Assembly: GCF_055900595.2 (NCBI RefSeq)
Contig: NZ_JBVWEU010000011.1
DNA length: 3,995 nt
DNA from: a plasmid
Reading direction: 5' to 3' (one strand)
Within the stretch, counting starts at the first letter, position 1. Every line of letters starts with the position of its first letter. The translations under genes were made by a program, and so were the position numbers. This document shows positions 1,378-2,571 of this stretch, in pieces. The notes under the pieces were generated by a model. It was given only the letters and a program-made list of their open reading frames with translations. It was not told where the DNA came from and searched no databases.

Positions 1378-2571
1378 ATGGCGACATTTCATATCAGCTT
1401 TAAAAAATTACGAAGATCAGAAGGTAAATCTTCGGTTTATTTATCTGCATATCAAAACCGAGAAAAGACAAAAGATAATCGAACCGGGGCAACCTGGGAT
1501 TATTCAAAAAAAGAGGGATTTTTCGGCTCTGCTATCCTCTCCCCTGCCGGCACACCTGCCGAACTGGTGAAGGACTCAGGCACCCTCTGGAATGCCGTAG
1601 AGGCTGGCGAGAAGCGAAAGGATGCCGAATTATGCCGTTATCTGGACATAGCCATCCCCAAGGAGCTGGACGACGGCCAGAAGAAGCAGATCGTCCTCGA
1701 TTACTGCCAAGAAAATTTCGTGGATTATGGAATGATTGCAGACATAGCATTTCATGATCTTGATAGTCATAACCCTCATGCTCATGTAATGCTAACTTTA
1801 AGAACTGTTAGCCCAAATGGATTTGGGAACAAACAAAGAGAATGGAATAATAGAGAAAACATTGAAGCCTGGCGAGTTAACTGGGAAATAATAGCAAATG
1901 ACCGATTAAAAAAATATGGTCATAAATCTCGTATTGACTCCCGTTCATTAAAAGACCAAAAAGAAGAGGCAGAAAGAAAGGCTGTTTTTGCTAAAACTCC
2001 GAAAGAGAAAGCCAAGTGGATTTCAAAAACTATTGAACTGGACAGAACGCCAATGACCAGGATACACAGGCACCAATGGCGAAAAGGTCAAAAATTAAGA
2101 GCTATGGAGCAAAAAGAAAAAGCATTATTATTAAAAATAGCTAATGCAACATACTTACAGCAAACCAAACCACCTCAGCCAGAGGAAACTATGAAAATAG
2201 AGAAAAAGCCTCTTGCAAGGTCAATCATTGATAATTTAAAGGCATTATACAAAAAGACCCAGCATATATTTAAATCAAAACCTAATGTAAATAAAAATAA
2301 AAAAGAAGAAAAAGAAGATCCTCAAAATTTCGTTAGTAGTTATGTAATAAATGAATTTGGCGAACATATATTAAAGACAGAGTTAGAAACAAAACCTAAA
2401 ACAGGCACAGGAACCGGAACCGGTGGAAATAATGGAGGCGGAAAAATGGGTTCAGGCTCTGGAATGTCTCCTATGAACCAACCACAACCAAAAATTGAAG
2501 AGCCTGAGCCGGAACCAATGCCGGAATTCGAAGATCAGCAACCTAAGAGGAAGAAGAAATTTGGAATGTAG
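1378..2571 (+). CDS. mobA: Conjugative relaxase, MobA/MobL (MOBQ) family, with low-complexity C-terminal tail
   Basis: 397-aa ORF with AAGGGG RBS (1366..1371) 6 nt before the ATG. N-terminus MATFHISFKKLRRSEGKSSVYLSAYQNRE matches the MobA/MobL N-terminal signature with the catalytic Tyr at residue 25 (TAT 1450..1452; compare RSF1010 MobA Y25). LWNAVEAGEKRKDAEL and the His triad HDLDSHNPHAHVMLT (H codons at 1753, 1777, 1783) are the conserved relaxase motifs. Confidence 0.9.
   Translation: MATFHISFKKLRRSEGKSSVYLSAYQNREKTKDNRTGATWDYSKKEGFFGSAILSPAGTPAELVKDSGTLWNAVEAGEKRKDAELCRYLDIAIPKELDDGQKKQIVLDYCQENFVDYGMIADIAFHDLDSHNPHAHVMLTLRTVSPNGFGNKQREWNNRENIEAWRVNWEIIANDRLKKYGHKSRIDSRSLKDQKEEAERKAVFAKTPKEKAKWISKTIELDRTPMTRIHRHQWRKGQKLRAMEQKEKALLLKIANATYLQQTKPPQPEETMKIEKKPLARSIIDNLKALYKKTQHIFKSKPNVNKNKKEEKEDPQNFVSSYVINEFGEHILKTELETKPKTGTGTGTGGNNGGGKMGSGSGMSPMNQPQPKIEEPEPEPMPEFEDQQPKRKKKFGM

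Follow-up and report, generated by a model that had tools for sequence, protein, structure and literature searches.

The relaxase gene mobQ of a small enterobacterial plasmid contains a segment of about 190 bp in which third codon positions are far richer in G and C (GC3) than in the rest of the gene. We found that this shift is real and makes the gene a compositional mosaic at its synonymous sites, the codons chosen in the segment being of the kind usual in GC-rich genomes. It is probably, though by no means securely, a passive mosaic in a normal and functional MobQ gene, one that is old and does not represent a separate element. The window, by which we mean the whole stretch of DNA that was analyzed (3995 bases), is a complete small mobilizable plasmid of ~4 kb in circularly permuted form. 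The GC content of the whole plasmid is 37.3%, and its hosts are at ~50–57% GC. Megablast searches of PLSDB found 12 independent records (3993–3998 bp, Klebsiella pneumoniae) that match the plasmid over its full length with at least 99.8% identity, and 38 records from Klebsiella, Enterobacter, Citrobacter, Raoultella, and Escherichia that cover at least 80% of it. The plasmid has the following features:

463–747: TraD-like accessory gene, transcribed divergently from mobQ
751–1134: second accessory gene, transcribed divergently from mobQ
1290–1340, plus strand: putative oriT, with conserved flanks and a 7-bp inverted repeat followed by GTGGGCCCTGCGGGGC
1378–2571, plus strand: mobQ, a relaxase gene of the MobA/MobL family encoding 397 aa (open reading frame, PF03389, and structure matches)
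aa 17–197 of MobQ: relaxase domain (Pfam MobA_MobL, PF03389; E = 7.1e-53)
3107–3960: ColE2-type Rep, with an apparent frameshift (poly-A run at ~3613–3625)
3957–3995 continuing into 1–225, plus strand: gene for a small HTH protein, which wraps around the window ends
95–225, plus strand: 3′ half of the small HTH gene, with a second GC3 step (from 0.16 to 0.50)

The putative oriT was assigned to 1290–1340 from the known architecture of MOBQ origins, and the arms of its predicted hairpin show compensatory (covarying) changes among relatives (alignment A4). Modules have been swapped among related plasmids. In AP022392, the rep region is 94–96% identical to that of the window, but the N-terminus of the relaxase is only ~70% identical, and in CP129619 and AP022062 the mob module is joined to another backbone, without the window's rep region. 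The first-pass annotation, which relied on hand counts, had put the GC content of the mob operon at about 23%; this value is true of the intergenic stretch 1101–1250 only, and the operon itself (463–1134) is at 33%.

Within mobQ, the segments relevant to the mosaic are as follows:

1408–1521, plus strand: 5′ conserved block of the motif I region (GKSSVYLSAYQNR...DNRTGATWDYSKKEGF), AT-rich, delimited by sliding identity and GC3 and by invariant columns
1522–1707, plus strand: GC3-rich patch, mobQ codons 49–110 (change-point scan, permutations, codon table, Fisher test, and codon-usage likelihoods)
1571–1656, plus strand: position of a gene-conversion tract seen in the related plasmid HG796320, holding 20 of the 26 differences in the 1194-nt gene
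1708–1800, plus strand: 3′ conserved block (QENFV..GMIADIAFHDLDSHNPHAHVML, with the motif III His triad), AT-rich, with a GC3 of 0.13–0.27
1950–1963 (~1956), plus strand: recombination breakpoint seen in the related plasmid KP008371 (logLR 166 versus a permutation maximum of 8)

An unbiased two-change-point scan placed the maximum-likelihood GC3-rich segment at nt 1522–1707, almost the same place as the GC-rich patch at 1520–1720 that had been noticed by eye. The GC3 of this segment is 0.71, compared with 0.27 in the rest of mobQ (logLR 21.5), and none of 500 permutations reached this score (maximum 12.4). According to the support intervals, the 3′ edge is sharp (1695–1725) and the 5′ edge is fuzzier (1483–1564). 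When recomputed, the GC contents agree with the hand counts (58.3% for 1561–1620 and 35.0% for 1801–1860), and that of 1520–1720 is 55.7%. The claim that GC-ending codons set the patch apart from the rest of mobQ was also borne out: such codons account for 44 of 64 in aa 47–110 and for 90 of the remaining 333 (Fisher p = 5.5e-10). Along the gene, the GC3 of 15-codon windows changes from 0.07–0.47 to 0.53–0.93 and then to 0.13. All six Lys codons in the patch are AAG, and AAA is used for 36 of 46 outside; for Leu, CTC or CTG is used at six of seven codons inside the patch and TTA at 14 of 18 outside. The synonymous choices in the patch have a log likelihood of about −67 under the usage of relaxase genes with 62–67% GC and of −91.9 under the plasmid's own usage. 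The adjacent flank of 62 codons shows the opposite (−49 under the plasmid's own usage versus −82 to −118 under the genes with 62–67% GC). Both edges of the patch coincide with the best-conserved nucleotide blocks, namely, the motif I and motif III regions. The nucleotide identity of the 5′ block to the sister lineage is 0.6–0.8, and 1708–1800 is the most conserved nucleotide stretch; distant blastn matches to mobQ land there, falling on 1672–1857 and not on the patch.

Other GC-rich islands of the plasmid had been described as similar to the patch, which is true of one of them. A comparable GC3 step is present only in the small HTH gene, in its 3′ half (~95–225). Four plasmids share an identical copy of this GC-rich half, joined to one or the other of two AT-rich 5′ halves; the orthologue in L024 is AT-rich throughout. 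The remaining islands differ in cause. The island at 2400–2530 encodes a Gly/Thr/Pro linker, and its rise in GC is amino-acid-driven (GC2 0.73–0.80, GC3 0.20–0.33). The island at 1303–1335 corresponds to the hairpin and nic region of the putative oriT, which has no relation to the patch, and 226–460 is a structured intergenic region.

MOBQ relaxases of the MobA/MobL family, such as NES of pLW1043 (PDB 4HT4) and MobA of R1162/RSF1010 (PDB 2NS6), resemble the MobQ studied here in the PF03389 domain, the motif I Tyr, and the motif III His triad. These systems also have an oriT directly upstream of the relaxase gene and divergent accessory genes. The family profile matches the structures of NES (2e-35) and MobA R1162 (1.1e-11). 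Y25, H126, H134, and H136 are invariant in alignment A2 and align to NES and MobA, and the catalytic residues of MOBQ4 relaxases are Y25 and H125/H133/H135 (PMC6856555). Motif I (Tyr25) and motif III (His126/134/136) are both encoded by AT-rich sequence beyond the borders of the patch. A variable stretch falls within the patch (aa 49–110), together with motif II (R87-Y88-x-D90) and the LWN..E..RK motif that is found across the family. Motif II differs from that of MobA: Y88 and D90, both invariant in the family, align to E74 and E76 of MobA R1162, so that only one of the two acidic residues is retained. The C-terminal half of MobQ is also different, being of low complexity and unrelated to those of NES and MobA. 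What the patch encodes is an ordinary portion of the HUH-type relaxase fold, comprising motif II, the LWN..E..RK helix, and a variable segment. The peptide quoted in the first-pass annotation (aa 55–111 of the 397-aa MobQ) had been taken for the most conserved part of the catalytic core. This was mistaken, as the patch sits between motifs I and III in the most variable part of the relaxase domain and, within the extended family, is the least conserved part of this domain in every pair compared.

MOBQ4 comprises mobilizable enterobacterial plasmids of the pIGWZ12 and ColE9-J types (Garcillan-Barcia et al., 2019; PMC6856555). Like the plasmid studied here, these are small enterobacterial plasmids with a mobA relaxase gene, a divergent accessory gene, and an oriT in between. 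They also show the same modularity, in that one mobilization module is joined to unrelated replicons, including those with a ColE2-like Rep (PF03090). Compared with the relaxases of pColE8 and pEC20-5, which we take to be of the MOBQ4 type, the relaxase domain of the window is 41–51% identical per segment and 43–46% identical over 194 aa. MOBQ4 relaxases cluster at ~84% mean identity over the N-terminal 300 aa (PMC6856555), and with 41–51% identity to those of pColE8 and pEC20-5 the window relaxase falls outside this group. The composition differs as well: the pColE8 and pEC20-5 genes are uniformly at 56–57% GC with no internal step, whereas those of the window's family are at 35–37% GC with GC-rich islands.

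To quantify the shift across relaxases, the contrast was defined as patch-minus-flank GC3 and compared with 79 homologous loci from a genome-wide scan. The contrast is +0.45 in the window and has a mean of −0.02 (sd 0.08, maximum +0.165) in these 79 relaxase genes found elsewhere. The sampled lineages of the plasmid's own family have contrasts of +0.18 to +0.45, among them CP129619 (+0.26) and AP022062 and AP022392 (both ~+0.23). L023 (P0127 lineage, 42% GC) has a broader GC3-rich zone at codons ~10–130, with a peak of 0.85. No local rise was found in the AT-rich homologues of Acinetobacter, Ligilactobacillus, Lactiplantibacillus, and Staphylococcus, and the GC-rich homologues are GC-rich evenly along the gene. 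An intragenic GC3 island like that of the window was likewise not seen in the NES-type, Acinetobacter, or Lactobacillaceae homologues. The contrast is also lacking in the AT-rich L024 (P0128 lineage), which is at a distance similar to that of L023, and in a large Enterobacterales group of the L021 type. Because the contrast is common to the plasmid's clade and absent from L024, L021, and the other homologues, the GC-richness of the patch is a derived, clade-specific trait.

The patch has the same length in both deep lineages, and outgroups carry indels there. This equality of length argues for common descent and against repeated independent imports. Between the deep lineages, synonymous sites in the patch are saturated (pS 0.83–0.87) and dN is twice the flank value. 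Despite this saturation, both lineages keep a patch GC3 of at least 0.53 (0.53–0.69), which neutral decay of an old import would not obviously leave; under AT pressure, the signal of one old import would be expected to have faded. AP022062 and AP022392 differ at 28 of 186 positions in the patch and 19 of 399 in the flanks, a ~3-fold excess (p = 5.5e-5), and GC3 was not lost.

Intragenic recombination is directly visible in this family. HG796320 is otherwise identical to the window over most of mobQ, and its differences are concentrated in the tract at 1571–1656 (logLR 41 versus a permutation maximum of 8). The two alleles of this tract are both GC-rich (0.55 and 0.57), with nine W>S and seven S>W changes among the 20 differing sites, and the HG796320 allele is closer to L023 than the window allele is (64/90 versus 59/90 nt). 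Relative to KP008371, there are 197 differences upstream of the breakpoint (1383–1956) and none over 615 nt downstream. The densest cluster of differences between AP022062 and AP022392 is found at ~1940–2214. We considered the patch as a recurrent conversion hotspot and set this aside, as only the HG796320 tract is centered there. The mosaic proteins P0004 and P0007 were rejected as patch-bounded recombinants, these being frameshifted translations; their contigs are long-read assemblies that are ~98.5% identical to the window with 12–14 gap positions. L017 was used within the segment labeled patch A only, as the ends of its circular contig overlap.

Sequence identity across the patch was also considered. 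Low patch identity between the deep lineages is a weak sign of a foreign allele, since the patch is the most variable part in every pair, and phylogenetic incongruence is weak evidence here for the same reason. Patch A of the window and of CP129619 has an amino acid identity of 0.68–0.74 to L023, at or above that of the flanks. This closeness is unusual for patch A and is the single hint of a link to a donor. Patch A is equally close to the sister lineage and to alphaproteobacterial relaxases, in a segment that is the most variable in all pairs. Mosaic genes can form by homologous recombination or short-tract conversion between diverged alleles, with penicillin-binding-protein genes and modular plasmid backbones as examples. 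The mobQ patch is like these in having blocks of contrasting divergence and composition within one reading frame, breakpoints in conserved sequence, and alternative blocks in relatives. It is unlike typical cases in that no donor is among the sequences sampled and the block is old and clade-wide, not a recent selectable import.

Searches for a donor returned the plasmid's own family. A blastn search of PLSDB with the patch found family plasmids only, at 87% identity or more; 37 plasmid records from five genera cover most of the patch with 87–100% identity. The exact patch core was found in metagenome contigs of three AT-rich family plasmids and nothing else. A phmmer search with the patch peptide against 1.84 billion representative proteins found none with more than 58% identity outside its own cluster, and a protein homologue search with the patch peptide alone found short fragments only. 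The first-pass annotation had named a uniform best-hit taxonomy across the gene, and a similar rise in homologues from AT-rich hosts, as findings that count against transfer. The best nucleotide matches of the patch and of its flanks are in fact the same Enterobacteriaceae plasmids, with no split in taxonomy. The rise is absent outside the clade (79 loci) but does occur in the AT-rich relatives within it. Together, the uniform taxonomy and the rise in clade relatives imply that an import would be old, predating the diversification of the clade, or that the GC-richness is maintained. With no donor found and a uniform best-hit taxonomy, these comparisons give no support to a recent import from a different taxon. 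Of the earlier proposal of mosaicism through gene conversion, the synonymous mosaic and the recombination within the family stand, and recent conversion from the GC-richer replicon of another taxon does not.

Such a recent conversion is very unlikely and largely refuted. The codon style of the patch does resemble that of genomes with 62–67% GC, and alphaproteobacteria-like relaxases match patch A (0.50–0.63) better than they match the flanks. A run of 14 residues, LWNAVEAGEKRKDA, is identical in L008, a metagenomic relaxase with 67% GC, and 36 of its 42 nt are identical; this run was rejected as a sign of the donor because it is a motif of the whole MobA/MobL family, and patch A has an overall nucleotide identity of only 0.54–0.57 to L008 and pDE3. 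Moreover, the patch occurs in all 37 near-full matches from five genera and therefore is not recent, and no nucleotide match outside the family was found. Slightly less credible still is amino acid composition or translational selection as the sole cause, which is refuted by the GC3 statistics. Ala, Gly, and Pro are abundant in patch A, and its GC1+2 is 0.59 compared with ~0.40 in the flanks, a value that is also raised in GC-rich homologues; nevertheless, the main signal is at third codon positions, AT-rich L024 and L021 encode the same motifs with AT-ending codons, and the real example of such an effect is the 2400–2530 island instead. AAG and GAG are not known to be translationally preferred codons in Enterobacteriaceae, so the pattern looks like GC-rich-genome ancestry and not expression tuning. 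The chance that the patch reflects an overlapping gene within mobQ, or a structured element acting as RNA or DNA, is fainter again. RSF1010 provides an example of such an arrangement, with mobB inside mobA, and in the window the patch is spanned by a 72-aa antisense ORF (1532–1750, minus strand) and by further ORFs in alternative frames. However, open frames are expected in GC-rich DNA, and the antisense ORF is not conserved, being broken by stops in KP008371 and AP022062 and heavily changed within the HG796320 tract. Folding of the patch revealed no excess of structure as RNA (z = 0.13 and −0.32) or as ssDNA (z = −1.75 and −1.17), Rfam had no match within the patch, and a promoter and terminator scan found no such site inside it. 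The least tenable of the explanations is a chimeric or misassembled sequence, which had been raised together with gene conversion and has nothing in its favor beyond the compositional step itself. It is refuted by the 12 whole-plasmid and 38 partial records noted above; the patch and its junctions recur in dozens of independent complete plasmid records, and the same junctions are present in three metagenome contigs and one unrelated MAG contig.

Under the passive mosaic that we consider probable, the N-terminal part of the relaxase gene in the ancestor of the clade would have derived from a GC-richer relative, whether it was already carried or was gained by homologous recombination. The conserved blocks coding for motif I and motif III may then have acted as crossover anchors in later exchanges with AT-rich relatives, which would have left the GC-rich core of ~190 bp. 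This core is the most divergent and therefore presumably the least recombinable part of the domain, and short-tract gene conversion may still shuffle the patch region between members of the clade. We infer both the direction and the age of this exchange. The persistence of the core could be explained either by introgression of the AT-rich flanks combined with little AT pressure in GC-rich hosts or by active maintenance of GC through biased conversion or selection. A position-locked maintenance, in which GC-biased heteroduplex repair acts at an often-converted site or selection acts at the DNA or RNA level independently of the protein (for example, through mRNA stability or a signal carried by the transferred strand), is possible but rather unlikely. 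It would fit the GC3 of 0.53–0.71 in at least four mutually saturated patch alleles (window, HG796320, CP129619, and AP022062/AP022392), the near balance of W>S and S>W changes between HG796320-tract alleles that are both at 55–57% GC, the GC3 kept by AP022062 and AP022392 under a 3-fold excess of differences, and the equal patch length in both lineages. On the other hand, the folding, Rfam, and promoter/terminator analyses are negative, the segments homologous to the patch lack GC-richness in 57 AT-rich loci as well as in the close relatives L024 and L021, and only one clear conversion tract is centered on the patch. The argument that an old import should have decayed is also not decisive, as it depends on the equilibrium GC3 in hosts of 50–57% GC. 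A shade more doubtful is the narrower proposal that the GC-rich state of the ~190 bp is actively maintained in this one clade, either by GC-biased conversion at a cassette that lies between motifs I and III and is prone to recombination or through a nucleic-acid-level role in transfer or expression. If true, such active maintenance would offer a small natural system in which to test for biased gene conversion, or for hidden constraint at the DNA level, in plasmids.

Returning to the passive mosaic, the pattern is one of ordinary plasmid mosaicism, and nothing suggests a new kind of element or mechanism. That a GC3 island has survived synonymous saturation is a minor puzzle, which may be used to test for GC-biased conversion in plasmids. 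For this plasmid family, the finding documents patchwork structure even within a relaxase gene of 1.2 kb on a plasmid of 4 kb. Such structure affects MOB typing and relaxase phylogenies, as trees built across the N-terminal domain of the family mix histories, and it also affects the inference of plasmid host range from base composition.

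Within the relaxase family of this plasmid, motif II (window 1636-1647, aa 87-90) reads R-Y-x-D, with R87, Y88, and D90 invariant. The corresponding site is occupied by E74/E76 in MobA of R1162 and by E87/E89 in MOBQ4 relaxases, such that the family differs from both known systems in having Tyr in place of one of two acidic residues. Other features recognized in the window were as follows:

~427-455: bidirectional terminator-like hairpin, within the intergenic region 226-460
1290-1340: putative oriT, in the order conserved TAATGCCCACTTATAC, 7-bp hairpin, GTGGGCCCTGCGGGGC
2383-2545: low-complexity linker in the C-terminal half of the relaxase, TGTGTGTGGNNGGGKMGSGSG...PEPEPEPMPE

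The GC-richness of the linker lies in its second codon positions (GC2 0.73-0.80) and does not reflect codon choice. For the putative oriT, the hairpin arms covary across relatives (ACGTCGC/GCGACGT, ACATTGC/GCAATGT, and ACACTCG/CGAGTGT). The intergenic region 226-460 is rich in GC and in C, and as single-stranded DNA it folds far better than shuffled sequences (z = -5.0 on the plus strand and -3.8 on the minus strand). The stretch 286-747 is 76-84% conserved even in the related plasmids CP129619 and AP022062, in neither of which was a match to the rep region of the window found. Region 226-460 may act as a site of single-strand initiation or of resolution.

The ColE2-type rep frame (3107-3960) is broken into two parts, 3107-3640 and 3655-3960, due to a homopolymer (poly-A run at ~3613-3625) that is one A shorter than in the related plasmid AP022392, whose rep is intact. 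This split may reflect either a genuine frameshift or an indel that arose in sequencing or assembly; two separate rep fragments are annotated in several records near-identical to the window. A weak match to CopA-like antisense RNA was found (3028-3118, minus strand; 27.7 bits, E = 0.057, under the gathering score of 60), which lies immediately upstream of the rep start and overlaps it. In ColE2-type plasmids, the RNAI that controls Rep translation is encoded at this position.

Near-identical copies of the plasmid occur in other records. One copy of the relaxase region (99% identical) is on a 4068-bp contig (L025, SAAR01000292.1) binned into an 'Erysipelotrichia' MAG; this contig is probably a mis-binned enterobacterial plasmid. 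The long-read assemblies L006 and L007 (ENA ERZ1694256) carry the plasmid with 12-14 gap positions over 1.35 kb, which result in truncated, frameshifted products that mimic mosaics. The apparent mosaic 'proteins' from these assemblies in public protein databases were therefore rejected.

The small HTH gene (3957-3995 and 1-225) is a mosaic. Its 5' half exists as two unrelated AT-rich versions in different plasmids (MIINGKKIKAKEIMEM... vs. MRRSTIRKGLTQKEMA...), and the GC-richer 3' half (GC3 0.50) that follows is identical with either version. In KP008371, a 128-kb IncFII/IncR Klebsiella plasmid, the whole small plasmid is inserted at 561-4561, opened within rep at window ~3434-3438, and the 5' part of its relaxase comes from the sister lineage. 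This copy is a cointegrate and an intragenic recombinant at once.
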